Below are positions 8,476-60,595 of a stretch of DNA of 64,000 nucleotides, in pieces (positions within the stretch are counted from its first letter, which is position 1; each line of letters opens with the position of its first letter). The notes under the pieces are model-generated. The model was not told where the DNA came from and searched no databases. It worked only from the letters and a program-made list of their open reading frames with translations. Position numbers and translations under genes: made by a program. Origin of the DNA: an uncultured Candidatus Saccharibacteria bacterium (GTDB lineage: Bacteria > Patescibacteriota > Minisyncoccia > Phycocordibacterales > UBA2100). The DNA is taken from positions 52,990 through 116,989 of the forward strand of contig CAZJEQ010000003.1 of NCBI GenBank assembly GCA_964545165.1, read 5' to 3'.

Positions 8476-8548
8476 GGCGAAGATTGTACCCCGTAGTAGA
8501 TGTTGGCGAAAGGCGTACCTGGGTAGCGACACTTTAGAGCCGTACTGT

Positions 8549-9949
8549 CTACTTGCGTACGTGCGCGCCCCACATCTTTCTCACAAAATGGAGCACCACC
8601 TCCAGCCCGCCGAGACCCAGGAGCAGGAGAAATGGCTCCGCTGGTATACGGTACCGTGTATACGCAATGACGCCGACCAAAATGGCGAGTACGCCGACAA
8701 TCGCACAGAAAAGGAGAACTTCAGGAAGTCGTTGGTCGCGACGCCAGAGTGCGACGAGGACCTGCAGCACGGCACCGGAACACACAAGCAACCAGAGTAT
8801 TCGTTCACCGGTAGTAAACGGGTGCGCAGCTAGTATGCCAATGACCGCGCCCACGTCGCCCGCGATCACCAGCCCCGAAAGACTCACCGCTGGCTCGCTT
8901 TCTTTCTGAAGGAGCGACATATTGACCAGCTCGCGCCCAGTGTCTGCAATGCTGCTGCCAATAAAGAGCGGTATGGTCTTTACGATATGAAAGAACGCGT
9001 ACGACGGAATGTGTCCGCCGATATACTCGTCGATGATCGCTGCTTCCTGTGCTTTATACGAGAACGACCGCAACACCCTCGTATCGCTCGTGCCCAGTCG
9101 CGCAAACAACTCATCTCGAAACGCATCCTTCGGTACGCCCTGCACCTCATGTTGATATTCGACCACATTATAAAAGAGCATGTTGTAGGTCGGTGCTGAG
9201 GTAAACGCGTACGAGCCACCCAAGTGGCCATTGCGTACGAGCCACGGGCCCGCGACCAAAAGCAGCCCGAGCATGAGGGCACCGCTTCCCCACAGACAGG
9301 CGACTCCGCTTTTTCTATGACGCCACAGGTAGTACGCCAGCATCAGTGGCAAGAGAAATTGTCCGACCGGGCGCGTCAGCGTCACAGCGCCAATGAGCAA
9401 TCCGATCATCAGTGCATGACGCAGCGACGGTGCGCCCCGCTCCGGCATGATCAAGATGTACACGCACACGACCAAGAGGAAGACGAAGAGTGATTCAGAG
9501 AGAACGGTGAGCGAGTGCAACATCACCGTCGGGTCGAAGGCGAAGATGAGCGCCGCCGCAACGCCCACGACGCGCGAGAAGAAGCGTACACCAAGCCGGT
9601 AGATGAGGATGCTCGTCGTGGCAATGAGTGCTATCTGCGCGAGTGCGACCACAATCACCGAATGAAAGATCGCTAGTATGATCGCGACAAATACTGGATA
9701 GCCGGGGATCCGAAAGAATTCTGGCGGGCCGTCGGGCGTGAGGACGAAGCGATGCTCAGAGAGCATCATCTGAGCGAGGGTGTAGTAATCATGCGCATCG
9801 CCCGTCGCGAGAAGTATCTCGGGTGAGATGCCTTTTCCCGCGCCCGTGATGAGCGCCCAGATCAGGACGCCCGTGTACACGACACACACTACGGCGGCGA
9901 TACCGACGTCGAGCCAATGCTGCGAGAGGTGTGCACGTAGCCGCTCCAT
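8549..9949 (-). CDS. GT39/GT83 (ArnT/PMT-like) membrane glycosyltransferase
   Basis: 466 aa, polytopic, with the N-terminal architecture typical of the ArnT/PMT family. Confidence 0.7.
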   Translation of the reverse strand: MERLRAHLSQHWLDVGIAAVVCVVYTGVLIWALITGAGKGISPEILLATGDAHDYYTLAQMMLSEHRFVLTPDGPPEFFRIPGYPVFVAIILAIFHSVIVVALAQIALIATTSILIYRLGVRFFSRVVGVAAALIFAFDPTVMLHSLTVLSESLFVFLLVVCVYILIMPERGAPSLRHALMIGLLIGAVTLTRPVGQFLLPLMLAYYLWRHRKSGVACLWGSGALMLGLLLVAGPWLVRNGHLGGSYAFTSAPTYNMLFYNVVEYQHEVQGVPKDAFRDELFARLGTSDTRVLRSFSYKAQEAAIIDEYIGGHIPSYAFFHIVKTIPLFIGSSIADTGRELVNMSLLQKESEPAVSLSGLVIAGDVGAVIGILAAHPFTTGERILWLLVCSGAVLQVLVALWRRDQRLPEVLLFCAIVGVLAILVGVIAYTRYRIPAEPFLLLLGLGGLEVVLHFVRKMWGAHVRK

Positions 9950-19327: not shown

Positions 19328-21253
19328 CTATTGACGCACGAAGCCGGCAGGACGAGATGGCAAATCTTCGCGCAAAAACGCTGCCAATCGCTCCGACGAA
19401 TGGCCATCAAAGGCGTACTCTCTCCTGAGAAACTCCTTGCCACGTTCGGCCACTTCTTGCCGATGCACAGGCTGCACAAGTGCTCTCATCGCGTCAACGA
19501 GAGCTGCATATGAAGCGGCTCCGACGCCGGCATCTTTAAAGCGCGCACGGAAATACGTATCGTACGCTTTTACTGGGTACAGCACGAGTGCCTTCTCAGC
19601 AATCAGCGCCTCGAACATCATGGTCGAATTACCCACCATGACTACGTCGGCCAAGCGTAGTACCGGAAACGCATCGCCATCAACGCACGCAATACCACCA
19701 TCGGGAAACACTTCAGAAATGAACCGCTGATACAGCGTCGTCATTGATCCGGGTCGGAATTTAAGGATGAGTTGGATATCGGGCACCGCGTCGTAAAGCG
19801 CTCGCAGTTCGCGTATATAGGCAGCACATTCGTGCGGATAAAAATCCATGTACAGCGAATTCGGACCTTCGGTCGGGAACGCCACCACCACGATCATCTT
19901 CTCAGGATCAAGGCCAAATCGCCGGATGTGGGCCACGCGCTCAGCCTGCGACAGTGCTAAATTTTGCAAATACGCATCAAACCGCGGCGATCCGATGGGC
20001 CGCACACGCTCAGGCGCGATGCCTAACTGCGCACGCATCATCTCTTGTGTCCCCCGACCATACGCCGCCAAATACGCCGCTTCGATGCGAGAACGTACGG
20101 TACGTGGGTCCACGATTTCTATTGCGTGCTGCAGTTCGATCGACGGCACGTTGAGTGCATACGCCACACGTGTCGCTACGAAGAAGTGTGGCTGCCGTCC
20201 GCTGTGACTGGCGCGCAAGACGACGCGATTACTCTTTTCCGTGCGTATGATGCGCTCCATCGCAAGCGCCTCTGCAATGACGCGCACCGCGTACGTGCGG
20301 ACAAGGTCGCGCGCTGCGTCTTCGACAAGCGGCCACCAATCGAGATTAGGAGAAACATGGCGGACAACCACTCTGATCGCTGGCATAGCACGCTGATACG
20401 CGGCGACATACTGCTTCGCTTCTTCAGCGGCAGCGGCACGCATATCGTCAGTCATCACGTCCAACGGATGCACAAACCGAATTCGATGCGAAAGAATAGC
20501 GCTCCACGGAATATTCTTGAATTCGCTGCGATCCATCAAGACAAGCTCTGCATCCGGCATGTGCTTGAGCAGTGGCGCGATATGCGACCAATATTCACTT
20601 GCAAATATTTTTATCTGACGCGTCGGTACACTCCATCGCACCAGTGCATTGAGCACGCGAAGTGCGCGATGTCGCCATGTTATACGCTCATGCAGCACCG
20701 TGCTCGGCGGCACACTCGCACCTTGCCCGATCACGCGTGTGTGCATACCGCGCCGTGCGATGACGAATCGCACGGCGTCAGTGAGCGCGCGTGCCTCAAA
20801 AAAAGCCAAGGGCCCGGCGCCATAGGAAATCCTCCGACCCCCTTCAGGAATGATGATTTCAGCCACATGCGGATGCGCCTCAACGACAGCTTCCACATGA
20901 TGTGCAAAGCGAAGCACGCGCTGGAGGTAAATTCTGAGTGGCGGTTCAAGGGCTTCACCAATGCGCACCTCTCCATGACGAAAGAAGGTCATCTCTGGTA
21001 TGCGATACCATAGACGAGCGAACGATTCTGCATTCGAGAGTACCTGCTCGAGTGCCTCGGCACTCCCCTGGTAGCGATCAAACGGCTCATGCGGTACGCC
21101 GCGTGCACGCAGCTCCTCTTGCGCCCAGAAATCCAACGCAATAACGGTCGGCGTCGCTTCCGTTGTGCGGACCTCTTCGGATATCTCGCGAGCCGTCCGT
21201 GCATCACATGCGATGATCAAGCGTTCTGGTGTCATATACGAACCTGTATGCAC
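19328..21253 (-). CDS. GT-B-fold glycosyl/glycerophosphotransferase (TagB/TagF/KpsS-like)
   Basis: The C-terminal region DVVMVGNSTMMFEALIAEKALVLYP resembles the nucleotide-binding half of TagF/capsule transferases. Confidence 0.4.
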   Translation of the reverse strand: MHTGSYMTPERLIIACDARTAREISEEVRTTEATPTVIALDFWAQEELRARGVPHEPFDRYQGSAEALEQVLSNAESFARLWYRIPEMTFFRHGEVRIGEALEPPLRIYLQRVLRFAHHVEAVVEAHPHVAEIIIPEGGRRISYGAGPLAFFEARALTDAVRFVIARRGMHTRVIGQGASVPPSTVLHERITWRHRALRVLNALVRWSVPTRQIKIFASEYWSHIAPLLKHMPDAELVLMDRSEFKNIPWSAILSHRIRFVHPLDVMTDDMRAAAAEEAKQYVAAYQRAMPAIRVVVRHVSPNLDWWPLVEDAARDLVRTYAVRVIAEALAMERIIRTEKSNRVVLRASHSGRQPHFFVATRVAYALNVPSIELQHAIEIVDPRTVRSRIEAAYLAAYGRGTQEMMRAQLGIAPERVRPIGSPRFDAYLQNLALSQAERVAHIRRFGLDPEKMIVVVAFPTEGPNSLYMDFYPHECAAYIRELRALYDAVPDIQLILKFRPGSMTTLYQRFISEVFPDGGIACVDGDAFPVLRLADVVMVGNSTMMFEALIAEKALVLYPVKAYDTYFRARFKDAGVGAASYAALVDAMRALVQPVHRQEVAERGKEFLRREYAFDGHSSERLAAFLREDLPSRPAGFVRQ

Positions 21254-42687: not shown

Positions 42688-44607
42688 TTAATCGTTTTTC
42701 TGCAATATCTCTTTGAGCGTGCCGTGCGAGATTTCGCCATGGTGGCGATCGCGCTCAGGTGTTTCGGGGCGCGGTGGGCGGGGCTGCTCTTGACGCTCCT
42801 CGCGTGCCTGCTGCTGCGGTGGTGTATGCGGCTCAGATCGGGGCACAAAGGCATCACGCGCAGCCTGTTGCTCACGCGGTGCACGGTGCATCTGCTGCAC
42901 GGTCTGCGGTCGCGGCTGCTCGCGCTTCTGTTCCCGCTTCTCACGGAGCACATCGATAGGTGAGCGTGTCGGCATCGCGATAGGTGCAGCGGTGCTCTTT
43001 GCAATACCTTCTGCGCGCGCCTTCTCGATCGCGTCACGCAGCGAATTGCGCTCTACTTTCTCGCGCTCTGCACGTACTACGGGCGCCGGAGCGTGGGCCG
43101 TATCGCGTGGCGCAAATACGGCGCGCGATTGTGAGAGTGGTGGCGATTGGGTCACGGCGACCGCTCGCGCAAGGACCGCACGCGGCTCGGTCCCCTCGTC
43201 GCGGGGCCGCGTGCCATAGGCACTCCCTTTTCGCTCCTTCTTTTCCTTTGGGGGCGCAATAAATTCCAGCTGCTTATTGTTGGTCACTGCTTCAACATCC
43301 ACACGGACACGCCCGTATTGCGCGCGTGAATTCGTAACCACATCGTCACGGTACGTAATCGCCGGCGCCTCGATGGGCGGAATGGTCTCGGCAGAAAACG
43401 GCGCCGTACCCACCCCGTCGATCATGAGCGTGAGGTAGATCTGCCCGATGCCGAGGCCGACCAAATCTTCTGGGAGGAAGGTGGGCTTAAAGACCGTCTC
43501 GAGTACTTCGGCGTCAAACGGGCCCACGCGGAACACGATGAGTGTGCCGACGTTGCCGAACACGGCATCGCGCACCTCCTCTTCCATCTGTTCGATGTAC
43601 TGGTTGGCGAGTGTGAGTGCGAGTTTGTATTTGCGTGATTCTGAGAGAATGTCGGCGAAGGCCTCGTTCATCATCGACTGGAATTCGTCGACATAGAAAT
43701 AAAAGCGCGGCAGGCGCGCGAGGCGCGCTGCTGGCTCATCGGCGCGCGACATCGCAGCGAGATAGATCTTGACCGTGAGCATGGATCCCAAGAGTGCGGC
43801 GTTACTCTCACCCATGCGCCCCTTGGAGAGGTTGACGATAAAGATCTTTTTCTCGTCCATGATTTTGCGCAAATCAAACGAGGAGTGCGGCTGCCCGATA
43901 ATGTTGCGGATCAGCGGATTCGCGGTGAATTGACCAATCTTGTTTTGAATAGCCGGCGTCGCTTCGCGGGTATACGTATCGGTAAAATTCGCGAATTCGT
44001 CCGTCCAGAATGCTTTTACGATCGGGTCCGAGATCTTCTCAATCACGGCATTGCGAAAGGTCTTGTTGGTGAGCATGCGATTCACATCGAGGAGCGTTGA
44101 GTCCGGATACTCGAGCAGCGCGAGCAAGGTATTTTGCAGGATGTATTCCATACGTGCTGACCACGCGTCCACCCAGATACGCTTGAGCGCCCCCATGAGG
44201 CCAGAGACGACGAGGTGGCGCTTGTCGAAGCCGACATCTTCCATGACGTTGAAGCCGAGCGGGAAATCCGTATCAAACGGCGCAAAGTACACGACGTCTT
44301 TCACGCGGTGCTCAGGGATGAAATCGAGCAGCTTCTCAGCGGTCGAGCCGTGCGGATCGATAAAGGCTATGCCCTCGCCATTTTGGATATCTTGAATCGC
44401 CATGTTCTCGAGCATGGTCGATTTACCCATACCGGTTTTACCGATGACATAGACGTGCTTACCGCGATCTACTGCACGAATACCAAACATCTCGCGCTTT
44501 CCGCGCGTATGGGTCGTCGCAAAGTAGGTAATGCGACGCTCATCGTCGTGCTGATCCGGATGTACTTTCGGACCTGTATCGGGTGCATCATGATGGTCCC
44601 CAGACAT
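42688..44607 (-). CDS. Soluble FtsK/HerA-superfamily P-loop ATPase of the TraD/TraG/VirD4 (TrwB_AAD_bind) type, copy 1
   Basis: Walker A VIGKTGMGKST. Walker B YFYVDEFQ followed by ...LALTLANQ. No N-terminal TM helices. A long Arg/Glu/Gln/Pro-rich disordered C-terminal tail. Confidence 0.65.
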   Translation of the reverse strand: MSGDHHDAPDTGPKVHPDQHDDERRITYFATTHTRGKREMFGIRAVDRGKHVYVIGKTGMGKSTMLENMAIQDIQNGEGIAFIDPHGSTAEKLLDFIPEHRVKDVVYFAPFDTDFPLGFNVMEDVGFDKRHLVVSGLMGALKRIWVDAWSARMEYILQNTLLALLEYPDSTLLDVNRMLTNKTFRNAVIEKISDPIVKAFWTDEFANFTDTYTREATPAIQNKIGQFTANPLIRNIIGQPHSSFDLRKIMDEKKIFIVNLSKGRMGESNAALLGSMLTVKIYLAAMSRADEPAARLARLPRFYFYVDEFQSMMNEAFADILSESRKYKLALTLANQYIEQMEEEVRDAVFGNVGTLIVFRVGPFDAEVLETVFKPTFLPEDLVGLGIGQIYLTLMIDGVGTAPFSAETIPPIEAPAITYRDDVVTNSRAQYGRVRVDVEAVTNNKQLEFIAPPKEKKERKGSAYGTRPRDEGTEPRAVLARAVAVTQSPPLSQSRAVFAPRDTAHAPAPVVRAEREKVERNSLRDAIEKARAEGIAKSTAAPIAMPTRSPIDVLREKREQKREQPRPQTVQQMHRAPREQQAARDAFVPRSEPHTPPQQQAREERQEQPRPPRPETPERDRHHGEISHGTLKEILQKND

Positions 44608-46426: not shown

Positions 46427-47560
46427 CTATTGGTACTGAATGTAGAGGGGCTGTGGCGATAGCTTCAACAGTTCACTCGGCTGGAACATACCGGTCGACG
46501 GAGCGAAGAGATCGTTCTTATAGAAGAGCTTAAACCCGGTGAACTGCACAGGCTCTGGCACGATGACACGGGTATAAGTGCCGATCTTTTTGGCTTTGTC
46601 GCCCCAGCCGTCCATGTCCATCACAATCTGTACTTCCGGGAGCGGCTTAATGAGTCTGGTGTTGGTCACCATGTCCTGTGTAAAGCGGTGCACGATGAGA
46701 ATTTTTGGCGGGAGGTTATTCTCGCGCACCAATCGCGCCAGATATTCTGCAGCAAAATTAATATCCGCCGCATCAAACGAGCCAATCACACGCCCTGGCG
46801 GCGCTCCTGTTTTCATCGAGAACTCCGGATCCACACCAAGATGGACCTTCGGATTCTTGAGGTACTCCTCGTAGTGCGGCAATTCTTTCTGCAGTGTCGA
46901 GAGTCCCACCTGGAAATCGATAAACACGATGCCGTCGATCTTCTCTGCAATCGCGAGTGCTTTATCGATCTGGTCATCCGGCATGCGCAGCGTATACATG
47001 CCGTCTTTTTGCGGGAGGCTCTGCGCGGTTGTCACGATGTAATGAATAGCGGGGATGACCGGTGTCTTGGGATCCGCCGCTTCCCACTTCGCAACTTCCG
47101 CGCGCAATTTCTCGAGCATGACCGGCTCATCGTATTCGCCGAGCACGCCCATGCCACGCGAATAGAAATTGCCGTAGTACGCGACGATGCGATTAAACGG
47201 TAGGAGCGCACCTACGTTCGGATATGGTGCATTTTTGACCGGCCATTTGATCGCCGCTTTTTGCGCAGCAGAAGCGGTGGTCGATGCGAGGAGCGCGAGC
47301 GTCGTCGAGCTGAGATTGGCATTGGCGAGCAGCTTGGCGTCGTAGGCTTCACGATCAAGCTCAGGCGCACGCGGCTTGAGCGGTGTCGTAAATTGCCCCG
47401 TCGACGATGCACTGGCTCCCGTGCGATCAAAATTGACCGCATTGCCAAACATCAACGGTCCGAAAAAAACATAGATGAGAGATATCGCGAGCAGCGCCAC
47501 GCCGACATAGATGCCGAAGCGTGCTCCGCGATGCATCTCACGCTTTGATGCACGTGCCAT
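46427..47560 (-). CDS. Membrane-anchored hypothetical protein (possible glycoside-hydrolase-like TIM-barrel, DUF4015-like)
   Basis: N-terminal TM. Recognised from memory only. Start set at internal M29. Confidence 0.35.
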   Translation of the reverse strand: MARASKREMHRGARFGIYVGVALLAISLIYVFFGPLMFGNAVNFDRTGASASSTGQFTTPLKPRAPELDREAYDAKLLANANLSSTTLALLASTTASAAQKAAIKWPVKNAPYPNVGALLPFNRIVAYYGNFYSRGMGVLGEYDEPVMLEKLRAEVAKWEAADPKTPVIPAIHYIVTTAQSLPQKDGMYTLRMPDDQIDKALAIAEKIDGIVFIDFQVGLSTLQKELPHYEEYLKNPKVHLGVDPEFSMKTGAPPGRVIGSFDAADINFAAEYLARLVRENNLPPKILIVHRFTQDMVTNTRLIKPLPEVQIVMDMDGWGDKAKKIGTYTRVIVPEPVQFTGFKLFYKNDLFAPSTGMFQPSELLKLSPQPLYIQYQ

Positions 47561-47561
47561 G

Positions 47562-47759
47562 CTATTCGAGCGTGGTGTCTTCTTTGTGTGAGTGAGGTGC
47601 GCGCAAAATGCCAGCGCGACGACGTACCGCAATACCGAGGCCAATGACGATCACGCCGAGGATAAAGAAAATAACCGTGTCCCAACTGCTGGGGAAGCCG
47701 AGAAACGGAAGCAGTGCGACCAAGGCGCCTGCGAGCATGATGAGCGTATCGAGTGTCAT
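47562..47759 (-). CDS. Small 2-TM membrane protein (65 aa)
   Basis: Strongly hydrophobic. Its stop abuts the start of the downstream gene. Confidence 0.4.
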   Translation of the reverse strand: MTLDTLIMLAGALVALLPFLGFPSSWDTVIFFILGVIVIGLGIAVRRRAGILRAPHSHKEDTTLE

Positions 47760-50756: not shown

Positions 50757-51668
50757 TTACCTCACTTTGTGGCCGCCAAATTGGCCGCGCAGCGCTGAGA
50801 CGACTTTACCAACAAAGCTCGGATTGTTTTCTGAATCGATGCGAAATTGGTACGAATCTTCAATCACCGGCGCCGGTACGTTAAATTCTTTTGCTGTCTT
50901 GACCGTCCATTCGCCTTCTCCCGTGTGCCCGATGGTACTAGAAATATCCGCGAGATCCTGACCACTCTCCTTGATCGCCGATCCTGCCCATCCAACAAGT
51001 CGCGATTCGATGACGCTACCGTTGTTGTAGATCTCGGCAACATCCTCGAGATTGATCGCAAAAGGGGATGCTTTGAGCACGCCAAATCCTTCGGCAAGGG
51101 CCTGCATCATGCCGTATTCGATACCGTTATGAACCATCTTAACGAAATGCCCCGCGCCCGCGCCCGGGAAGAATTTGTATGCCGTGCCGTCTTTGGCCAG
51201 ATCCTGGAAAAGTGGCTCGAATGCTTTGAATGCACTCTCGTCACCACCGACCATGAGGCACGCGCCGTTGAGTGCGCCACCGGGGCCGCCGGAGAACCCG
51301 ACATCTATAAAGCGAATACCTTTTTCGGCGAGCTGCTTTCCATGCTCGATCGATTCTTTGTAAAACGAGTTGCCGCCGTCCATCACCACGTCGCCCGGCT
51401 GCAAAATACTCGCGAGCTGTCTGAGGACATCTTCAACCGGCTTGCCCGCAGGGACCATCAGCCACACGAGACGCGGGGTATCACTCCCTGCGATCTCCGC
51501 AATGCTCGTGATCTGCTTCATGCCGGTCTCCATGGCCAATGCAGCGGTGACCTCCGCATTCATATCCATGCCTGCTACCGACCACCCTTTCTGCGTAAGA
51601 CGGCGGACAATGTTGGCACCCATCTTGCCAAGGCCGAGTATATTGAGCTCTTTTTTCATGTCAGTCAC
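50757..51668 (-). CDS. gnd: 6-phosphogluconate dehydrogenase, short (~300 aa) form
   Basis: LNILGLGKMGANIVRRL NAD-binding N-terminus plus the 6PGD fold. Confidence 0.8.
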   Translation of the reverse strand: MTDMKKELNILGLGKMGANIVRRLTQKGWSVAGMDMNAEVTAALAMETGMKQITSIAEIAGSDTPRLVWLMVPAGKPVEDVLRQLASILQPGDVVMDGGNSFYKESIEHGKQLAEKGIRFIDVGFSGGPGGALNGACLMVGGDESAFKAFEPLFQDLAKDGTAYKFFPGAGAGHFVKMVHNGIEYGMMQALAEGFGVLKASPFAINLEDVAEIYNNGSVIESRLVGWAGSAIKESGQDLADISSTIGHTGEGEWTVKTAKEFNVPAPVIEDSYQFRIDSENNPSFVGKVVSALRGQFGGHKVR

Positions 51669-53103
51669 TGATATCTGATTGTTCTAAAATTTCTTTCGTA
51701 TCAGGAGTGTACACCATGAGCGGCACGACATTCTGTTGCCAGGCTGCAAGGATCGGATCAGTAAAGCGCCACATCGCACGCACCTCCGCGGTCGAGATAA
51801 AGAGCGTCTGGTCGCCGCGCACACCATCGAGCAGCAGCTTCGCGTACTCCTCGACATACGCAACCTTCGCCTGCGGCTCGCGGAGCAGATAGTGAAATTC
51901 ACGACGCTCCGTCGCAAACGAGAAGCCCGGCGTCTTGGACCAGAATTCGATGAGAATCTCTTCGCGCGGCTCCAATCTGATTACGACCTCGTTTTTATGA
52001 TGCGGCTCCTCTGGTGGGCAGAGGCACGGCTGCGGATGACGGAACACAATACGGATTTCCTTTTGCGCGCTGCCAAGACGTTTCCCACCCTCCATCGTAA
52101 TCGGGACGCCGCGCCAATTCGGATGATCGAGGTAGGTGCGTACCTTAAAGAATGTCTCCGTCTCAGAATCCGGCTTCACACCATCAATCGCACGGTATCC
52201 CTCATACTGGGCGCGCACGGTCGAGCGCTCGATTTCTTTCTCGGACAAAGAGGGGAGGCACGCCAGGATCTCCGCTCGGCGCTCCTGAATAGCCGCCGCG
52301 TCAAAGCTCTCTGGGTGGCGCATCGTAAGCAGCGCGAGGATCTGCAGGAAGTGATTTTGTCCGACATCACGAAATGCGCCGACGTCGTCATAAAAGGCGC
52401 CGCGCTTCTCCACACCGATTTCCTCCAGCATGCTGATTTTGATGGATTCGATGAGCTTCGAGCCCCACTGCATCTCGAAGAGATTGTTGGCAAAGCGGAA
52501 GGTGAGTATGTTTTGCAACATTTCCTTGGCGAGGTAATGATCGATGCGATAGATCTGGTCCTCAGAAAAATACTGCGCGAGCAAGAGATCCAGCTCACGC
52601 GCTGTATCGGTATCCACACCAAAGGGCTTTTCCACCATCACGCGCATCCAGCCGCCGCCCGGCCCACACGGCTCCGAGAGACGCGAAGAGGAGAGTTGCT
52701 TAAAGATCGTTTCGTAAAATTCGGGTGCAACCGAGAGATAGAAGAGCTTGTTCGAGCAGACACCCCATTCCTGATCGAGCGTATCAAAGGTCGACTTCAA
52801 CGCCGCGTAACTCTCAGACTCGTCGAAGTCACCGCGCTGGAAGCGGAAAATCTTGAGAAAAGAGGCGAGTTCGTGCTTGGTAAATTTCTTGTTGCGGTGC
52901 TCGCTAATAGTCGTGACGATAAAATCTGCAAAAGTCTCATCCGTCAGATCACGGCGCGAGAATCCCACCACATGGAACATGGAGGGGAGTTCGTCCTTCT
53001 CGTATAAATAGTAGAGCGCGGGAATGACCTTGCGACGCATCAAATCTCCCGTCGCTCCAAACGCCACCAGAATCGTCGGAATATTCTCATGTGGCGCGAC
53101 CAT
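51661..53103 (-). CDS. zwf: Glucose-6-phosphate 1-dehydrogenase
   Basis: ILVAFGATGDLMRRKVIPALY and RIDHYLAKEMLQN motifs. Start set at internal M66. TATAAT lies 8-13 nt upstream of that ATG. Confidence 0.9.
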   Translation of the reverse strand: MVAPHENIPTILVAFGATGDLMRRKVIPALYYLYEKDELPSMFHVVGFSRRDLTDETFADFIVTTISEHRNKKFTKHELASFLKIFRFQRGDFDESESYAALKSTFDTLDQEWGVCSNKLFYLSVAPEFYETIFKQLSSSRLSEPCGPGGGWMRVMVEKPFGVDTDTARELDLLLAQYFSEDQIYRIDHYLAKEMLQNILTFRFANNLFEMQWGSKLIESIKISMLEEIGVEKRGAFYDDVGAFRDVGQNHFLQILALLTMRHPESFDAAAIQERRAEILACLPSLSEKEIERSTVRAQYEGYRAIDGVKPDSETETFFKVRTYLDHPNWRGVPITMEGGKRLGSAQKEIRIVFRHPQPCLCPPEEPHHKNEVVIRLEPREEILIEFWSKTPGFSFATERREFHYLLREPQAKVAYVEEYAKLLLDGVRGDQTLFISTAEVRAMWRFTDPILAAWQQNVVPLMVYTPDTKEILEQSDISD

Positions 53104-53214
53104 AGCGCTCGCATTATACCCGCCGGATACTGATAAGTTTGACTTCCCCCCTACCCTGTTCTCCGTTGAGTTATCCACAGGTCCGAGATCACACCCGAGA
53201 GCCATAATGATGAC

Positions 53215-53400
53215 CGCGTTCGAACACTCGTAGGTGGAAAGTGAATCAGGGTGCAATTCCCTGGCTGTCGCGCAACCGTATAGTCGGAGCCTTTCCATTC
53301 CCCTCTTTCAAGGGCTACGTTCCGGCTCGCGCCAAGTCACCTTCCACAACTCCCCTTGTGGATCCTCATGACCCCGCGATCCGGGGTTTGTCGCGTATGT
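53215..53400 (+). ncRNA. Candidate cobalamin (AdoCbl) riboswitch
   Basis: The core 53234-53291, GGUGGAAAGUGAAUCAGGGUGCAAUUCCCUGGCUGUCGCGCAACCGUAUAGUCGGAGCC, aligns by eye to the recalled E. coli btuB segment AGGGAAUCCAGUGCGAAUCUGGAGCUGACGCGCAGCGGUAAGG and to the T. tengcongensis GGGUGAGAAUCCCGCGCAGCCCCCGCUACUGUGAGG. A 6-bp hairpin ACCCCG-CGAUC-CGGGGU plus UUGU follows at 53371-53390, just before the ATG. Not verified with a covariance model. Confidence 0.4.
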
Positions 53401-53401
53401 C

Positions 53402-55414
53402 ATGCAGGAAGTTGCAGAACAACCAATTGATTACGTATCCGAAAATAGTGTCGGCGATTTTGATTTTGAGCGCCCATTTGAAATTGCTAATGAAAACGAG
53501 ATGCAGCTGTCCGACGAGGAGGTCTCTCCCGAGCTACTCGCCGCGAACGACATCGATCCAGTGGGAGAAGCGATACGCCCGTATGTAGGTGAACAATCGG
53601 AGACGGTAACGAGAGCAGAAAATATAATGGAGATAAAAGATGGCGAACTAGTGGATAACAACAGCGGGCTATCTCTCACGCGAATGCTTGAAACATCTGG
53701 AAGCGATGCGGACAGGGCGCTGCACCAAGACATGATGCGGCAATGGCAAGAGGGCGGCAGCAATTTTTTTGTAAATCCGATATTGGAACCTGAATACTTT
53801 CCCGGCGGAGAGCGCTATTTCATTACAACGATGATCCTTGAAGCTGACGGCAAGAGTGTCAGTTATGAGACGCGCACTATTACTACTCTGTACAAGGACG
53901 AGGACGAGACGCCAGCGCGTGATAACGAATACGCGGAGTCCAGCTCTCAGCAATGGTCTGAACACACAGGGTCTCAGGAAATCGAGGCGAATTACCCGCA
54001 GAATGAACTCGCATATATGGAGCAGGCGGCAGCAGTTACGGTTGAAGAACCAGAGTCTGCCGATACCGAAGCAGCCATTACTACTACCGCACGAGAAAAC
54101 ACTCAATCTCAGCTTGAAGCAAACGTACCGACTACGATGGAGGTTCGTACAGAATCTGAAAAATCTATTGAATATTCGTACGCAGAAATTGCGCATCCAC
54201 GAGAAATACAGGCGCAGATATTAGGAGAATTCCTCGCCATGGAACAATTGCCTGCCATACCAGTAGAAGACGATTTTAATGAGCCAATTATCTTGAAGGC
54301 ACCTGAGCCAGCACAAGACATCCTGAACGAGGCACAGCGCGTTGAGCACTCAGAAACAAATCGGGCTCCTGTTGAAATCCCCACAAACAATGTTCCGAGA
54401 TTTGTAGAAACTCAAACCAGTGAAGTCATATTTGAACAAGCCGAAATTGTCCAAGAGCTCGCTGAGCAACCAGAAGTAACCGTACAGATTAAGACCGAGG
54501 TTCCTCGCACTAAACCTGCTGCTACCAGAGAAGTGCAGAGGATCGACGTACAGGACGCAGAGCTTCCGACATATGATTTTAAAGATGCGATTGATGAGAT
54601 CAGAGAAGTGACCTCAGTGGTTATAGAACAACAAGAGAAGCCCGTTGTGAAAGAGATTACGGAGCTTAAGCCAGAAGTAAAAACTGTCGAGCCACAAATT
54701 GTAGAAATCTTTAGAGGTCGCCGTGGTGCGCGACCAACGACTGAATCGGGATCATCAAGATCAAATCACGAGGAGCGGGCAGAGGAGCTGCGTACTGAGC
54801 CACAATCAATCGCCGAGCGAGCTGTCGAGCAGACACTTGAGCGATTCGCCGCTGAAATGATTCGCGCACGTCCCACGCAACAAGAAGATGCACACCGAGA
54901 GCCGTTCGTTGAGCTAAATGTACGTGCAGCTAATGAACATGATCTGGTCGTTGAAGCTGATGAGCAGGCACTGACCACACGTGAGCACGTACGAGTCGCA
55001 GAGAAAGTTGCGCCAATAATCCTTGAACAAAAGCCGACCATTTCATCAGAAACTCGTCTTCCCGATATTCCAGAAACACGTACTGATGAATCTCTACACA
55101 TCCCAGAGGAGCCTGCCGCTCAACCACATGTGACTGCTGAAGCCGCTCCTCAACGCACAGCGCATGAATCAGGCACTGTTGTTCCCTTCCCTGACCTCGC
55201 TCGCCCTGAGACAAGAGCAGCCTCTGGCATTGAACATATTCTTGAGCAGCTCCGCCTTCCCCGCTCCGCGAACACTCCTGAAGTGATCCGTGCTGCCAAC
55301 GAGAACCTCCGCACGAGCGCATCAAGTAATCTCGCTATGTCCGACGATGCCGACAATCAACCACGTACGCGCACCGTCAAATCTGGTCCGATCACGATGA
55401 GAATTGCCGCCTAA
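53402..55414 (+). CDS. 670-aa highly acidic (Glu/Gln/Asp/Thr/Ala-rich), low-complexity, probably disordered protein
   Basis: A long ORF on the plus strand. The Glu-rich composition is unlike the Arg/Ala/Pro-rich spurious ORFs in this window. No signal peptide, TM helix or recognisable domain. Confidence 0.5.
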   Translation: MQEVAEQPIDYVSENSVGDFDFERPFEIANENEMQLSDEEVSPELLAANDIDPVGEAIRPYVGEQSETVTRAENIMEIKDGELVDNNSGLSLTRMLETSGSDADRALHQDMMRQWQEGGSNFFVNPILEPEYFPGGERYFITTMILEADGKSVSYETRTITTLYKDEDETPARDNEYAESSSQQWSEHTGSQEIEANYPQNELAYMEQAAAVTVEEPESADTEAAITTTARENTQSQLEANVPTTMEVRTESEKSIEYSYAEIAHPREIQAQILGEFLAMEQLPAIPVEDDFNEPIILKAPEPAQDILNEAQRVEHSETNRAPVEIPTNNVPRFVETQTSEVIFEQAEIVQELAEQPEVTVQIKTEVPRTKPAATREVQRIDVQDAELPTYDFKDAIDEIREVTSVVIEQQEKPVVKEITELKPEVKTVEPQIVEIFRGRRGARPTTESGSSRSNHEERAEELRTEPQSIAERAVEQTLERFAAEMIRARPTQQEDAHREPFVELNVRAANEHDLVVEADEQALTTREHVRVAEKVAPIILEQKPTISSETRLPDIPETRTDESLHIPEEPAAQPHVTAEAAPQRTAHESGTVVPFPDLARPETRAASGIEHILEQLRLPRSANTPEVIRAANENLRTSASSNLAMSDDADNQPRTRTVKSGPITMRIAA

Positions 55415-55418
55415 ATAA

Positions 55419-57086
55419 ATGCGTATGTCCGACAAGAAAATCCCCTACTACAATCTCCGCCAAGAAGCCGAAGCAGGCAGACTTCCGATGCTTATCGGTC
55501 GCTTTGAAGAAATCGAGCGCCTGGATCGCATTGTGAATCGTCGCGTGAATAATAATGTCGCCATCGTGGCGCAGAGTGGCACGGGCAAGACAGCGCTCGT
55601 CTGGGGCTGGATGCGACACCTCACCTCACGAGAAGAATTCGCCGCACTCGAATTACTACAATTCGACACTGAGCACCTCTACGCGCTTGATGACGATCCG
55701 GCGCTCGAGGAGCGGTACATCGAAGCGCTCTTACACCTCCCGCAGTGCGTGCTCTTTATCGACGATTTCGGCCGTGAAGTCTCGCGCAACAGCGTGCTGA
55801 TGCAGCGGATCTTCCGCATCTACAAACGCATCCTCAAAGAAGCGCACATCCACATCGTACTCGCGATGACACCGCAAGAGCACGAGTGGTTTGAGCGCGA
55901 ATTCGCGGCATTCCTCCACCTCTTTGAGGTCGTTACGCTGAAGGAGCAGACTGCTCAAGAGCACGTACGCATCTTGAGCCGCACGATTCCCCAGCTCAAC
56001 AAAAAACATCGCATGATCGTGCCTGATTCGTCACTGCGCGAAGTCGTGGCATTCACCGAGCGCTTCCCGGCGCTCGGGCAGATGCCGAAAGCCGCGATCC
56101 GCATCCTCGATGAGAGTATTTCCTACAGTGCCTCCAAGCATCGCAAAGTATTGCGCCAAGACGCTATCGCGCATGTGATCGAAGCGAAAACGGGAGTGCC
56201 CAAATCCCGCCTCAATGCCGATGAGCTCGCTGATATCAAACATCTCGAGACCTCACTCAATGCCCGCGTGCGCGGCCAGGGCGATGCCATTGCACGGATT
56301 GCCAAGACGCTGCAGCGTGCAAAGCTCGGCCTCCGCAATCCCGATCGACCACTCGGCTCCTTCCTTCTCCTGGGTCCCTCCGGCGTCGGCAAGACCGAAA
56401 CCGCAAAGAGCGTCGCAGATCTTATCTTCGGCCGCTCCGAGAGCTTTGTGCGCTTCGATATGTCCGAATTCCAGCAAGACCATACGGTGCAACGACTCAT
56501 CGGCGCCCCCGCCGGATACGTGGGCTTCGAAGAAGGCGGTGCGCTCACCAATCAGCTGCGCAAAGAGCCGCACTCGCTGGTCCTCCTCGACGAAATCGAA
56601 AAAGCGCATCCCAAGGTCTTCGATATTTTCCTCCAGGTACTCGACGACGGCCGCCTTACCTCAGGACAGAACGAGACCGTCGATGCGCGCAACGCAATTG
56701 TGATGGCCACCTCAAATGCTGCGGTCCCAGAAATTCTTGACGTGTTTGCACATACTGACGGGCAGGTCGACGAAACGTTTATGCAAGAAAAAGTAATGCC
56801 GGCGCTCGCCAAGACCTTCCGTCTGGAATTTATTAATCGTTTCGATGCGATCCTCGTTTTCAAGCCACTCTCGGTATCAGGCCTCATCGAAATCGCGCAG
56901 CTGGAGATCAAGAAGATCGAGAAGCGTCTCGAGCGACACGGCGTGCAATTCGATTTTGTGCCCGCAGAGATAGAAGCAAAAATCGCGACACTTGCTGATC
57001 CACGTTTTGGTGCTCGTCCAGTGAAACGCTACATCGAAGAGACCTGCGAGACATTACTCGCCGACACCTTACTCGCCTCACGATAA
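55419..57086 (+). CDS. Compact ClpA/ClpB/ClpC-family AAA+ ATPase (two AAA modules, no N-domain or M-domain; D1 Walker B degenerate)
   Basis: D1: IGRFEEIERLDRIVNRRVNNNVAIVAQSGTGKTALV, with Walker B VLFIDDFG (DD in place of DE). D2: LLLGPSGVGKTETAKSVA...LVLLDEIEKAH...DGRLTSGQNETVDARNAIVMATSNA. Confidence 0.8.
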   Translation: MRMSDKKIPYYNLRQEAEAGRLPMLIGRFEEIERLDRIVNRRVNNNVAIVAQSGTGKTALVWGWMRHLTSREEFAALELLQFDTEHLYALDDDPALEERYIEALLHLPQCVLFIDDFGREVSRNSVLMQRIFRIYKRILKEAHIHIVLAMTPQEHEWFEREFAAFLHLFEVVTLKEQTAQEHVRILSRTIPQLNKKHRMIVPDSSLREVVAFTERFPALGQMPKAAIRILDESISYSASKHRKVLRQDAIAHVIEAKTGVPKSRLNADELADIKHLETSLNARVRGQGDAIARIAKTLQRAKLGLRNPDRPLGSFLLLGPSGVGKTETAKSVADLIFGRSESFVRFDMSEFQQDHTVQRLIGAPAGYVGFEEGGALTNQLRKEPHSLVLLDEIEKAHPKVFDIFLQVLDDGRLTSGQNETVDARNAIVMATSNAAVPEILDVFAHTDGQVDETFMQEKVMPALAKTFRLEFINRFDAILVFKPLSVSGLIEIAQLEIKKIEKRLERHGVQFDFVPAEIEAKIATLADPRFGARPVKRYIEETCETLLADTLLASR

Positions 57087-57090
57087 ACCT

Positions 57091-57408
57091 ATGCACACAC
57101 GCGAAACACTTCCATCCCGCGAGCATTTCACCAACACTGCGGCGCCAGCGACGCAGGAAAAGGCACGTGTCTCACTCGCGCATGCCGACGAGATCCATGC
57201 GAGCCGCCGCACCATGCTCGAGGGTCTTGCCTCGAAAATCGGCTCACGCCTCTTCGAGGCCCTCTCGCGCAAAGTCGACCACGAACGCAGCGCCCTCGTC
57301 GAGATGATCGAGCGCGATGCGAAAGCCGCTGAGACCAAGCGCCGACTCGATAAGGTGCTCAAAACTGAATACTTTACGTACCGAAAACTTGATACCAATT
57401 TACTGTAA
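57091..57408 (+). CDS. Small alpha-helical hypothetical protein (105 aa)
   Basis: It starts 4 nt after the clp-like stop and ends 4 nt before the next start. Confidence 0.5.
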   Translation: MHTRETLPSREHFTNTAAPATQEKARVSLAHADEIHASRRTMLEGLASKIGSRLFEALSRKVDHERSALVEMIERDAKAAETKRRLDKVLKTEYFTYRKLDTNLL

Positions 57409-57412
57409 TCCT

Positions 57413-58693
57413 ATGCATACGGTCTCTATTGGCGAAAATGTGTACCACGGCAAGCGACGCCTGATTGAATACGCGGCAGATGATCGTCTGCGCCATATGT
57501 ACATGATTGGCAAAACGGGCGTCGGCAAATCGACGATTTTCCAAAATATGTGTCTGCAGGATATCGAGCGCGGCAGTGGTACCTGCTTTATTGATCCCCA
57601 TGGAGAATCGATTGAATGGCTCCTCGCGCGCATCCCCGCGGATCGCCTCCAAGACGTCGTCCTCTTCGACCCAAGTGACACCGACTACCCCTTTGGGCTC
57701 AACCTCCTCGAGGCGCGCGACGAATTCGAGAAGGATTTCCTCGTGAATGAATGCATCCAGATTTTCTACAAACTCTTCGATCCTAAGAAGAGCGGCATTA
57801 TCGGTCCCCAATTCGAGCACTGGCTGCGCAATGCCGCACTCACCGTGATGGCCGGGCCTGACGGCGGATCAATTCTCGAAATCCCGCGCCTCTTTGTCGA
57901 CAAAGAATTTGAGCGCACGAAACGCGCGCACCTCACGGATCCGCTCGTCCTCGATTTCTGGACCAAGCAGATGGCAAAAACGTCGGATTTCCACAAGAGC
58001 GAAATGCTCAACTACTTCATGTCGAAATTCGGCCCCTTCATCAACAACGCCATGATGCGCAATATCATGGGCCAGCATGTGAGCAGCTTCGACTTTAGTG
58101 CACTGATGAATGGGCGCGCCATCGTGCTCGCCAATCTCTCCAAAGGCAAGATCGGCGAAATGAATGCGCACATGCTCGGCCTCATCCTGATCTCGCGCTT
58201 GCAGGCGGCGGTGCTAGGGCGCGCCAAAGACCCGCCACAGAGCCGCACCCCCTTCTATCTGTACGTCGACGAGTTTCAAAACTTCTCGACCGACACGTTT
58301 ATCTCGCTCCTCTCTGAGTCACGTAAATACGGCCTCGGCATCCATCTGACCAATCAATACCTCTCACAGCTGCCGGAGAGCATCCGCGATTCGGTACTCG
58401 GCAACGTCGGCACGATGGTCTCATTCGAAGTCGGTGCTGAAGATGCACGTCTCTTGAGTGATGAATTCGCACCGATGTCAGAAGCAGATTTCATGGGACT
58501 CCCGCGCTTTAATTTCTTCGTAAAACTTATGATGGGTGGGAAAACCAGCGAAGTCTTCTCGGGCGTCGGGCTGCCGCCACAAGACATCGCCGCGACGAGC
58601 GCCTCGCGTGAGAGCGTGGTCGCATTGAATCGCCTCGCCTATGGCTGGCCGCGCACGCTCGTCGAAGAGACCGTGCATCACCAGCTTCGCTAA
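57413..58693 (+). CDS. Soluble TraD/TraG/VirD4-type (FtsK/HerA superfamily) ATPase, copy 2
   Basis: Walker A MIGKTGVGKST. Walker B FYLYVDEFQ followed by ...GIHLTNQ. Collinear paralogue of the 42688..44607 product. Start set at internal M33 of the tracked ORF. No TM. Confidence 0.65.
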   Translation: MHTVSIGENVYHGKRRLIEYAADDRLRHMYMIGKTGVGKSTIFQNMCLQDIERGSGTCFIDPHGESIEWLLARIPADRLQDVVLFDPSDTDYPFGLNLLEARDEFEKDFLVNECIQIFYKLFDPKKSGIIGPQFEHWLRNAALTVMAGPDGGSILEIPRLFVDKEFERTKRAHLTDPLVLDFWTKQMAKTSDFHKSEMLNYFMSKFGPFINNAMMRNIMGQHVSSFDFSALMNGRAIVLANLSKGKIGEMNAHMLGLILISRLQAAVLGRAKDPPQSRTPFYLYVDEFQNFSTDTFISLLSESRKYGLGIHLTNQYLSQLPESIRDSVLGNVGTMVSFEVGAEDARLLSDEFAPMSEADFMGLPRFNFFVKLMMGGKTSEVFSGVGLPPQDIAATSASRESVVALNRLAYGWPRTLVEETVHHQLR

Positions 58694-59376
58694 TCCCGAA
58701 AGAGATCGCGATAGATATCCTCAGCTGGATCAATGAGCGCTTCCTGTGCATCCACGAGATCGACGAACTCCACTGGCGCATCCGTGATGATGGCGAGCGG
58801 TTGCTGCTCACTGCCCTCGCCTGTCACGAGCGTCGCCGCGGTCGCGAGCGAGTCGGCGACGTTGGTCTGCGTCACCTCCATTGTCTTGCCGAAAATATCC
58901 GGCGTCCCACGGTAATCGCGCACACCGCGAACGCCTGCATACCCGAGTGCCACGCCGGTCACACCCGCGCGCAACGGCGCCACACGACTATCTGTAATGA
59001 CGATCCCGAGGTTTGATATATCAAACTGCTGCATCAGCGCCCTGCGTAGACGCTCGGCAGAAGCGAAACAATCTGCGGGAAGCAAGACAAGCCGCCCATC
59101 GCTATTCGATTCATCGATGCCAGCGTTTACGATCGCGATGCCCTGCCGCACGGTGAGCCACCACTTCGGCAAAATTTGTTTCGTCCAGGAACTCTCCGAT
59201 TCGATTAGCTGCTGCTTCTCTAGGCTCGGCGCTGTGCGACCCTCGGCGAGCGCGACCACCTTCGAGGCGATCGCGAGGATAGAACCATCGGCAAGCTGCG
59301 GTATGTGCTCGGCAATAAACGCTGCGAGATCCTCACCTTCGGCGAAGATACGAGTGCGAATCGGCGTGACAATCAT
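58690..59376 (-). CDS. CofE-like gamma-glutamyl ligase family protein (F420-0:glutamate ligase fold)
   Basis: Family resemblance across the length (…GIVITDSRVAPLRAGVTGVALGYAG…). Confidence 0.6.
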   Translation of the reverse strand: MIVTPIRTRIFAEGEDLAAFIAEHIPQLADGSILAIASKVVALAEGRTAPSLEKQQLIESESSWTKQILPKWWLTVRQGIAIVNAGIDESNSDGRLVLLPADCFASAERLRRALMQQFDISNLGIVITDSRVAPLRAGVTGVALGYAGVRGVRDYRGTPDIFGKTMEVTQTNVADSLATAATLVTGEGSEQQPLAIITDAPVEFVDLVDAQEALIDPAEDIYRDLFRD

Positions 59377-60425: not shown

Positions 60426-60513
60426 ATATTGGTGAGCATGGAGAGATTTGAGCTCTCGCGGGTTTCCCTATGCGCTTCACGTATCGCCGAGACGTACGCG
60501 CTTCCGGATTGAG

Positions 60514-60595
60514 TGGGCGTGGGGAGACTCGAACTCCCAACCCTTGCGGGATACGCTTCTGAGACGTACGCGTATACCAGTTCCGCCACACGCCC
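60514..60595 (-). tRNA. tRNA-Leu (anticodon CAG), type II with long variable arm; CCA not encoded
   Basis: The hand-folded minus-strand sequence GGGCGTG-TG-GCGGAACTGGTATACGCG-TACGT-CTCAGAA-GCGTA-TCCCGCAAGGGTT-GGGAG-TTCGAGT-CTCCC-CACGCCC-A has a 7-bp acceptor stem, a T-loop TTCGAGT and anticodon loop cT-CAG-Aa. Coordinates are anchored to ORF 60448..60675. Confidence 0.8.

Follow-up and report, generated by a model that had tools for sequence, protein, structure and literature searches.

Cobalamin (vitamin B12) riboswitches of clan CL00101 (RF00174, RF01482 and RF01689) occupy 5' untranslated regions and share an aptamer core and the helices of a four-way junction. Nearly all characterised members are OFF switches, which repress expression when the ligand is bound. 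To our knowledge, their regulons comprise transport, biosynthesis and isozyme replacement. Among protein-handling ATPases, ClpB/Hsp104 and ClpV contain two AAA+ modules, and type IV coupling proteins (T4CPs), such as TrwB/VirD4, Cagβ-CagZ and DotL-IcmSW-LvgA, combine a RecA-like nucleotide-binding domain with an all-alpha domain. Here, we describe a locus in which relatives of all three are joined. It is a four-gene cassette (positions 53402-58693) in a 64,000-nt stretch of contig CAZJEQ010000003.1, hereafter referred to as the window, and all coordinates are window positions unless a related locus is named. A leader resembling a cobalamin riboswitch precedes the genes for a polyacidic protein (gene 1), a compact ClpB-like ATPase (gene 2), a small helical protein (gene 3) and a soluble T4CP-like ATPase (gene 4). 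Judged from its sequence, the locus appears to couple a B12 sensor to a self-contained four-gene unit encoding two ATPases, a coiled-coil protein and a tailed polyanion. The initial annotation of this DNA knew of no described system with these parts. Full-text literature searches agree, as they returned no description of the cassette, of its link to a riboswitch or of a B12 riboswitch in the Candidate Phyla Radiation (CPR).

Eighty genome loci were collected through the gene 4 ATPase, and cassettes without that ATPase would escape such a collection. Relatives, denoted by L numbers, were seen as parts of genomes, and many of the contig taxon labels are automatic. The Clp-like gene is located directly upstream of the ATPase gene in every locus whose ATPase is at least 58% identical to that of the window. 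The four-gene order, the conservation of which the initial annotation had put forward as a test, is retained in 47 loci, earlier metagenomic ones included. Upstream of the cassette, an aptamer is present in 38 of the 38 loci whose 5' region is intact on the contig, and these span Kaiser-, Nomura-, Paceibacterota- and Doudnabacteria-labelled genomes. One Magasanikbacteria-labelled contig carries the cassette and ends before the leader. At all 35 non-cassette loci, the ATPase homologue, membrane-anchored in most, is found outside the cassette and has no riboswitch. Operon and riboswitch are thus a conserved unit in Kaiser-, Nomura-, Paceibacterota/Parcubacteria- and Doudnabacteria-labelled genomes.

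The leader of the window matches RF01689 (AdoCbl-II) at 39.6 bits, above the gathering score of 36.5 (E = 6e-6 over the whole window). Its aptamer is a compact variant in which two elements of the Rfam model, the P6 extension and the inner P2 helix, are absent. An outer helix, supported less strongly than the core, encloses the aptamer together with a second hairpin (53301-53304 with 53311-53314) in an RNAalifold analysis of six short-class leaders. Compensatory changes occur in P1 and in the junction helices of compact-class aptamers. From position 53204 on, the leader (ATAATGA...CGCGTTCGAAC...CGTAGGTGG) is conserved in L004, L007, L008 and L010.

Two aptamer classes serve the cassette. The long class is distinguished by its P6 extension and by a UCCCGAGCAGGA hairpin on the 3' side; the compact class, to which the aptamers of the window, L004 and L007-L011 belong, has neither. 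Compact-class riboswitches may prefer cobalamins with small upper ligands, according to work on class I and class II cobalamin riboswitches. Rfam recognised three of twelve related leaders at the gathering threshold (RF01689 in L007 and L010, RF00174 in L023) and missed the other nine. In L001 and L003, unrelated contigs of metagenomic and genomic origin that carry the same four genes, RF01482 (AdoCbl) is found directly 5' of gene 1 (58.2 and 65 bits, cut-off 50). A covariance model of our own, built from twelve long-class leaders, matched 35 cassette loci, always on the plus (coding) strand and with no more than about 130 nt between the end of the match and the acidic open reading frame (ORF). 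The core GGUG..AAUCC..GCCGCWACNGU..AGUCNG is retained in all 35 matches. On the 35 non-cassette loci, the same model found nothing besides one non-significant match. It misses the compact aptamer of the window at E ≤ 1, and the assignment of the window aptamer comes from Rfam and from a manual and RNAalifold alignment of the short class. L008 (390-475) and L009 (3128-3215) feature a compact aptamer with a hairpin of about 22 nt inserted in the GGUG…AAUUCC loop; these were read by eye, as neither Rfam at its gathering threshold nor our model reported them.

Covariation points in the same direction. In an alignment of 36 aptamer sequences, 92% of the pair cells hold standard pairs, and 12 of the 17 pairs show double changes. 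Double-change cells number 111, compared with about 36 in shuffled alignments. The covariation score is 0.418, compared with 0.113 after shuffling and 0.03-0.12 with partners slid. The resemblance to a cobalamin riboswitch reported in the initial annotation is therefore strengthened by an Rfam score above threshold, by the 38/38 association and by covariation, and on all computable grounds of membership the leader is assigned to clan CL00101. Aptamer core, junction helices and 5' position are those of described cobalamin riboswitches. The cassette genes, in contrast, are not those of transport, biosynthesis or B12-independent isozymes.

The junctions between genes 1 and 4 (TAA-ATAA-ATG, TAA-ACCT-ATG and TAA-TCCT-ATG) leave gaps of exactly 4 nt, and there is consequently no space for separate ribosome-binding sites. 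The neighbours are on the minus strand, namely zwf and a 6-phosphogluconate dehydrogenase gene upstream, and an F420_ligase-like gene and a short-chain dehydrogenase (SDR) gene downstream. Read directly, junctions and flanks are those given in the initial annotation, which had described a plus-strand cassette with 4-nt gaps amid minus-strand genes. That the four genes form one unit agrees with the tight spacing kept in relatives, in most of which the gene downstream of the cassette is on the other strand. The longest gene 4 ORF opens at an in-frame ATG at 57317. Since homologues begin at the ATG at 57413, the latter is taken as the start. The GC content of the operon (0.51-0.56) is the same as that of the window overall, and the best protein matches from the window are labelled Candidatus Kaiserbacteria, Paceibacterota and Parcubacteria, which places the organism in the CPR/Patescibacteria, with a Kaiserbacteria-like genome.

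A terminator-like hairpin ends 10 nt 5' of the start codon of gene 1 and is the putative expression platform. Equivalent hairpins followed by 4-7 U are found in L004, L008, L009, L010 and L011, where the stem sequences differ and the hairpin is kept. Hairpin energies are modest, ranging from -5 to -12.5 kcal/mol, and a consensus promoter and terminator scan of the leader called nothing. We infer that the operon would be expressed when B12 is scarce, mostly from the precedent of OFF switches and in addition from the position of the hairpin before the start codon; the ligand-bound switch would end transcription. An "anti-P1" pairing occurs in the minimum-free-energy fold of the window; inspection by eye showed no conservation in relatives, and it was dropped.

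Gene 2 encodes a protein matching AAA_2 (1.4e-57) and ClpB_D2-small in Pfam, and its best PDB match is ClpB (4d2q, 2e-100). Aligned to E. coli ClpB, the protein matches from ClpB residue 166 onwards and has no counterpart of residues 401-530; both the N domain and the M domain are hence missing. D1 contains the Walker A motif GTGKT and the Walker B motif FIDD, while D2 features GVGKT and LLDEIEKA. In all 26 aligned family members, the Walker B aspartate of D1 is followed by D, N, T or S, never by E, and a dead D1 is therefore a trait of the family. D1 keeps Walker A and has no pore-loop tyrosine. In D2, the motifs GPSGVGKTE and LLDEIEKAHP, the GYVG pore loop and the arginine-finger region are all kept. 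These alignments confirm the change from DE to DD in D1 and the canonical D2 that had been noted previously, and indicate that D1 probably binds nucleotide and is hydrolysis-dead throughout the family.

As in ClpB/Hsp104 and ClpV, gene 2 has two AAA+ modules; its D2 is 50-60% identical to that of ClpB, and it contains the ClpB_D2-small domain. It differs from ClpB/Hsp104 in lacking the N domain, the coiled coil of the M domain, the catalytic glutamate of D1 and the D1 pore-loop tyrosine. After TSNAAV, which we take to be the position of the ClpP-docking loop in ClpA/ClpC, the protein aligns nearly without gaps to ClpB and contains no [IVL]G[FL] tripeptide for ClpP docking. Gene 2 scores below every NCBIfam equivalog cut-off and far under those of ClpB, ClpA and ClpV (ClpB TIGR03346, 394 bits against 1232). 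The "Clp-like unfoldase" of the initial annotation hence stands as a Clp-type double AAA+ protein and is narrowed to ClpB-like rather than ClpA/C-like, given the missing ClpP loop, N domain and M domain.

For gene 4, about 7,900 of the 8,000 candidates scored match at E ≤ 0.001, and the 120 best are 68-100% identical. Pfam yields weak TrwB, TraG-D_C and HerA/DUF87 matches and no FtsK_SpoIIIE. Walker A (GKTGVGKST) starts at residue 33 and Walker B reads YVDEF; GKTGVGKS and VDEF are invariant in the family. An all-alpha insert is located at about residues 104-235, and no hydrophobic or transmembrane segment is detected (maximum KD19 1.34). Foldseek searches with the AlphaFold2 (AF2) model returned, in order of E-value, Cagβ (1.9e-6), HerA, DotL (2.6e-5), TrwB (3.4e-5) and VirB4, with TM-scores of 0.5-0.6 for Cagβ, DotL and TrwB. 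The product of gene 4 is thus predicted to have the VirD4/TrwB/Cagβ fold without the membrane anchor. A soluble coupling-type ATPase of the FtsK/HerA superfamily, lacking the N-terminal anchor, had been proposed before; fold match and KD19 support the superfamily and the missing anchor, while the nearest relatives are the T4CPs Cagβ, TrwB and DotL and not FtsK or EccC.

Gene 4 shares with T4CPs the RecA-like nucleotide-binding domain and the all-alpha domain, and the cassette, like T4CP complexes, also encodes a small helical partner and a candidate substrate with a signal-like C-terminal tail. Unlike T4CPs, gene 4 has no N-terminal membrane anchor, and no type IV secretion system (T4SS) or relaxase genes were found in the cassette flanks or among window ORFs of at least 500 residues. 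Moreover, the ATPase is paired with a Clp-type unfoldase, and the cassette is predicted to be B12-regulated and is chromosomal and highly conserved. The loose likeness to type VII secretion (EccA/EccC) suggested earlier extends to a cytosolic AAA+ protein beside an ATPase of the FtsK/HerA superfamily, to small helical proteins and to signals at the C-terminus. As a family assignment, it fails on all three parts and was rejected: gene 4 is T4CP-type, with a single nucleotide-binding domain and no FtsK_SpoIIIE, gene 3 is predicted to be one helix without a WXG motif rather than a WXG100-type hairpin, and gene 2 is Clp-type and not an EccA of the CbxX/TPR type.

In CPR of the Berkelbacteria type, the orthologue of gene 4 (50-55% identity) is the C-terminal half of a protein of about 850 residues with an N-terminal membrane segment, and neither a Clp-like gene nor a riboswitch occurs within 7 kb of the ATPase. 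These clusters (L063 34-13209; also L050, L052, L071, L059 and L047) contain two membrane-anchored T4CP-like ATPases of about 850 and about 1000-1070 residues, flanking a protein of about 170 residues and a Sigma70_r4 plus HARE-HTH protein. Acidic ORFs precede the ATPases; one matches DUF5663, and several end in AA. The cassette ATPase may descend from an arrangement of this kind. The window also contains a second soluble T4CP-like gene, the product of which has a long C-terminal extension rich in Pro, Gln and Arg. It adjoins a gene for a PKD-domain protein. Identity is 47% with the second anchored ATPase of the Berkelbacteria type, its orthologue, and 39% with the ATPase of the cassette. Two T4CP-like paralogues are hence conserved in CPR, and in this genome neither has an anchor. 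In Patescibacteria, 5,713 VirD4-like genes have been counted, of which only 148 are near virB4, and exaptation "cannot be ruled out" (PMC12102498).

Gene 3 encodes a basic protein (pI 9.6), and proteins of about 105 residues are found at the same position of the cassette in nearly all loci. A homology search with gene 3 retrieved only two near-identical sequences, and a profile built from 30 locus-derived homologues has no PDB or Pfam match. AF2 predicts one continuous helix spanning residues 19-104 (pLDDT 84), consistent with a protein that is probably a coiled-coil adaptor.

The product of gene 1 has a pI of 4.4, with 136 acidic (D+E) against 61 basic (K+R) residues; E accounts for 15%, A for 10%, T for 8%, and P and V for 7% each. 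It matches no Pfam or NCBIfam family, has no hydrophobic or transmembrane segment and is probably largely disordered. Counterparts range from 240 to 910 residues, are acidic in nearly all loci (D+E 0.16-0.28) and are barely alignable, which marks gene 1, by its sequences, as fast-evolving. A subset of these proteins has in common an N-terminal region of about 120 residues (…KGGE..DWELEYKG…ALHQ.MLAQWK.GG…), part of which is kept in the window protein. The only feature conserved across the family is the C-terminal tail, with the consensus L-N-G-I-T-L-R-R-A-A-COOH across 47 loci. Of these tails, 42 have A as the last residue and 38 as the penultimate one, with the AA ending shared by 34; G-[IV]-x-[LMI] occurs in 35. 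Among other ORFs from the same loci, the AA ending occurs in about 1.4%. The suggestion that the acidic protein is cargo or an adaptor gains support from this tail, which the initial annotation had overlooked.

Both ssrA-type tails ending in AA, read by Clp unfoldases, and the C-terminal signals of T4CP substrates are precedents for reading the tail as a handle by which one of the two motors would grip the gene 1 product. As in ssrA-type …LAA degrons of ClpX and ClpA, an Ala-Ala-COOH tail is borne by a protein encoded beside a Clp-type motor. Unlike these degrons, the tail is genetically encoded and not added by transfer-messenger RNA (tmRNA), its recognition is putative, and the motor lacks a ClpP-docking loop, so degradation is not implied. 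A tmRNA scan of 56 loci, made for comparing the native ssrA tag with the tail, found no tmRNA gene.

The gene neighbourhoods of the riboswitch provide a link to B12 binding. In transcobalamin-type B12 binders, the C-terminal domain is DUF4430 (PMC4350170). A metagenome scan for the aptamer core found 120 loci, at least seven of which have the cassette. Many of the others lead into small membrane-anchored DUF4430 proteins or a TonB-dependent receptor; this aptamer type therefore drives recognised B12-uptake genes elsewhere. In L009, a DUF4430 gene starts 22 nt after the ATPase stop codon on the same strand. The gene that follows encodes 539 residues, with a DUF4430 domain, a hydrophobic segment at the C-terminus and a borderline match to squalene-cyclase-like repeats, and is itself followed by a convergent F420_ligase-like gene. 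In L096, a Kaiserbacteria-like metagenomic locus, the riboswitch drives only a DUF4430 gene and a gene for 543 residues; the convergent F420_ligase-like orthologue (60% identical to that of the window) and tRNA-Leu(CAG) are located downstream. The corresponding slot of the window holds the riboswitch, the cassette, the F420_ligase-like gene and tRNA-Leu(CAG), and in L005 a DUF4430 gene abuts the riboswitch. Comparison of these four loci indicates that a single chromosomal slot, governed by the same sensor, can be occupied by the cassette, by B12 binders or by both together. From these arrangements, which the initial annotation had not noticed, we infer that the cassette belongs to a B12-acquisition or B12-starvation regulon.

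Other genes in these neighbourhoods deserve mention. The riboswitch-controlled transcobalamin-like pair of the Kaiserbacteria-like L096 (about 6570-8800, reoriented) and L009 (8303-10432) consists of a signal-anchored DUF4430 protein of 138-161 residues and a protein of about 540 residues, and the two are likely to be surface B12 binders of CPR bacteria. Proteins of about 450-570 residues follow riboswitches with the same core in L124, L203, L108, L094, L190, L095, L170 and L105. Four of them begin with MAVAAE, at least three have Cys-rich, zinc-ribbon-like C-termini, and the two examined have no Pfam match. A NadD-like cytidylyltransferase gene comes next in four of these loci, and a LexA-like gene is upstream in three. 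They look like additional, uncharacterised members of the B12 regulon. The F420_ligase-like gene and tRNA-Leu(CAG) form a synteny block common to the window, L009 and L096. The tRNA gene is also present in L004-L008, L011 and L016; of these, at least L004 and L008 have the F420_ligase-like gene as well. In a CPR genome, a homologue of F420 ligase would not be expected.

We propose that the riboswitch in the 5' leader would control a translationally coupled operon, the four products of which would assemble as a cytoplasmic two-motor protein-handling machine. One motor would be a ClpB-type AAA+ ring, with D2 as the sole working motor, and the second a hexameric ATPase of the T4CP type whose membrane anchor has been lost. 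The coiled-coil product of gene 3 would be the adaptor, and that of gene 1 the tail-tagged, disordered, polyacidic client. The machine would serve B12 acquisition or the response to B12 starvation. Taken as a whole, a B12-starvation-induced protein-handling machine within a B12-acquisition regulon has, in our estimate, roughly an even chance of being correct. We regard the cassette as a coupling-protein/unfoldase module recruited to a riboswitch regulon, with a substantial chance of being a new kind of system. More tentatively, it is possible, although rather doubtful, that it represents new vitamin-acquisition machinery specific to ultra-small episymbionts: at low B12, the tailed acidic protein would be produced along with a threading motor derived from ClpB and an exapted coupling ATPase without an anchor, and the two motors would deliver or cycle it to obtain cobalamin from the environment or the host.

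Several points weigh against this proposal. The direction of the switch is read from hairpins that are short, weak, alignment-based and uncalled by the scanner. DUF4430 genes are linked to only two of the 38 cassette loci and to one syntenic locus. A B12-binding motif is not recognisable in any of the four cassette proteins, and gene 1 lacks DxHxxG. All four are likewise without a membrane segment, so the cassette itself cannot be a transporter, and no VirB4-type T4SS gene is found among window ORFs of at least 500 residues. The AF2 model of gene 4 is of moderate confidence (pLDDT 71.7), and the long helix predicted for gene 3 was modelled from a two-sequence alignment. A mostly disordered client would need no unfoldase. 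Finally, some acidic ORFs beside the membrane-anchored ATPase paralogue end in AA where there is no Clp-like gene, which favours the ATPase rather than the Clp-like protein as the candidate reader of the tail.

Among the alternatives, coupling to secretion, which may also be seen as a variant of the proposal, survives best, and we consider it unlikely. An acidic effector or extracellular B12 scavenger would be threaded by the Clp-like motor and passed by the ATPase to a type IV or other channel encoded elsewhere. Hemophore export and the Dot/Icm coupling complexes, with their small adaptors, are precedents for such a route. It accords with the T4CP fold of gene 4, the top matches of which include Cagβ, regulated by the small helical CagZ, as well as DotL and TrwB. 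The tail is C-terminal, hydrophobic and Arg-rich, as known T4SS signals are, and gene 1 shows the rapid evolution of proteins that act in conflicts or at the cell surface. Moreover, VirB4-type T4SSs exist in Paceibacteria, and most T4CP homologues of Patescibacteria are far from virB4 (PMC12102498). However, the cassette ATPase lacks the very anchor that docks T4CPs to the channel, and the window ORFs mentioned above include no T4SS gene. No T4SS is known to use a ClpB-like partner.

A second alternative, which we regard as improbable, assumes that lack of B12 stalls a class II ribonucleotide reductase (RNR) and that the cassette, with its T4CP-like protein as a DNA motor, helps to import or process DNA for deoxynucleotides. 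T4CP, HerA and FtsK relatives are DNA translocases. In other bacteria, B12 riboswitches precede nrdAB or nrdDG and switch on B12-independent RNRs, an arrangement to which the cassette would be parallel. A class II RNR gene is found immediately upstream of the riboswitch on the same strand in L003 (1572-3908) and L019 (362-2698), but these are the only two such loci, and they share 96% identity. Components for DNA cleavage, DNA binding or a channel are missing from the cassette, and the linkage observed is to B12 binders; judging by the conserved tail and the Clp-type protein motor, the substrate is a protein rather than DNA.

Very improbable, and nearly excluded, is a reading in which the cassette serves proteostasis in general or the epibiont lifestyle, has nothing to do with B12 and carries a riboswitch that is incidental or decayed. 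In its favour, the window aptamer exceeds the Rfam threshold by only 3 bits and is two helices short of the model, and nine of twelve related leaders were missed at that threshold. Nonetheless, the association holds at every intact locus, in several differently labelled CPR lineages and with two aptamer classes, with the core kept and with strong covariation. Non-cassette loci have no significant aptamer, and DUF4430 genes are linked to the operon. Least probable, and likewise nearly excluded, is a HerA/AAA+-type module of phage defence or of a mobile element: PADLOC gives domain-level matches to DolB and PDC-M37B (D2) and to mad8 and HerA (ATPase), but these are generic ATPase cores of different systems with no full-length single-system match and none for genes 1 and 3, the chromosomal position and neighbours are conserved, the GC content is like that of the rest of the window, the ATPase is unlike those of defence islands in its identity among the 120 best matches, and a vitamin riboswitch is not a defence regulator.

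Features of the window are listed in Table 1. The longest zwf ORF overlaps the aptamer; the true start is at about 53103 (MVAPHENIPT…), as indicated by Pfam coverage and by the L004 orthologue, which begins with MVAP. Over-extension of zwf by automatic gene callers may mask the riboswitch. Two further ORFs of the window, at 19328-21253 (minus strand, 641 residues) and 46427-47644 (minus strand, 405 residues), have no Pfam match at E ≤ 0.01.

Table 1 Coordinates of the riboswitch, the cassette and other features of the window
Feature	Position	Strand	Description
Intergenic leader	53104-53401	+	Between divergent zwf and gene 1; aptamer and expression platform
Extended aptamer domain	53229-53319	+	Outer helix CGUAG 53229-53233 with CUACG 53315-53319
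Cobalamin riboswitch aptamer	53234-53298	+	RF01689 (AdoCbl-II), compact class
Terminator-like hairpin	53371-53391	+	ACCCCG/CGGGGU, 5-nt loop, then UUUGU; putative expression platform
Gene 1	53402-55414	+	670-aa polyacidic protein, probably largely disordered
Gene 1 C-terminal tail codons	55382-55411	+	SGPITMRIAA
Gene 2	55419-57086	+	555 aa, compact ClpB-like double AAA+ ATPase
Gene 3	57091-57408	+	105 aa, basic, predicted single long helix
Gene 4	57413-58693	+	426 aa, soluble T4CP-like ATPase
Second soluble T4CP-like gene	42688-44607	-	639 aa; PF10412 (3e-8), PF02534, TraG-D_C
zwf, longest ORF	51661-53298	-	545 aa, overlaps aptamer on opposite strand; over-extended
F420_ligase-like (CofE-like) gene	58690-59376	-	Convergent to operon
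tRNA-Leu(CAG)	60513-60595	-	About 2 kb further on

The operon falls outside the transport, biosynthesis and isozyme classes and would widen the B12 regulon. For VirD4-like ATPases encoded far from a T4SS, a question raised in PMC12102498, the riboswitch supplies a ligand, a candidate client with a tail and partner proteins. If the proposal is true, this would be the first function for thousands of "orphan" VirD4-like ATPases of Patescibacteria and the first AAA+/T4CP machine under riboswitch control. The riboswitch is also a possible ligand-controlled expression tool for Patescibacteria genetics. A large part of bacterial diversity belongs to CPR/Patescibacteria, and most of their conserved genes are without a known role. 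An RNA that senses a metabolite is among the few features through which computation can connect unknown genes to physiology. Here, the riboswitch ties such genes to a physiological signal, in that a four-gene machine of these bacteria would respond to vitamin B12.

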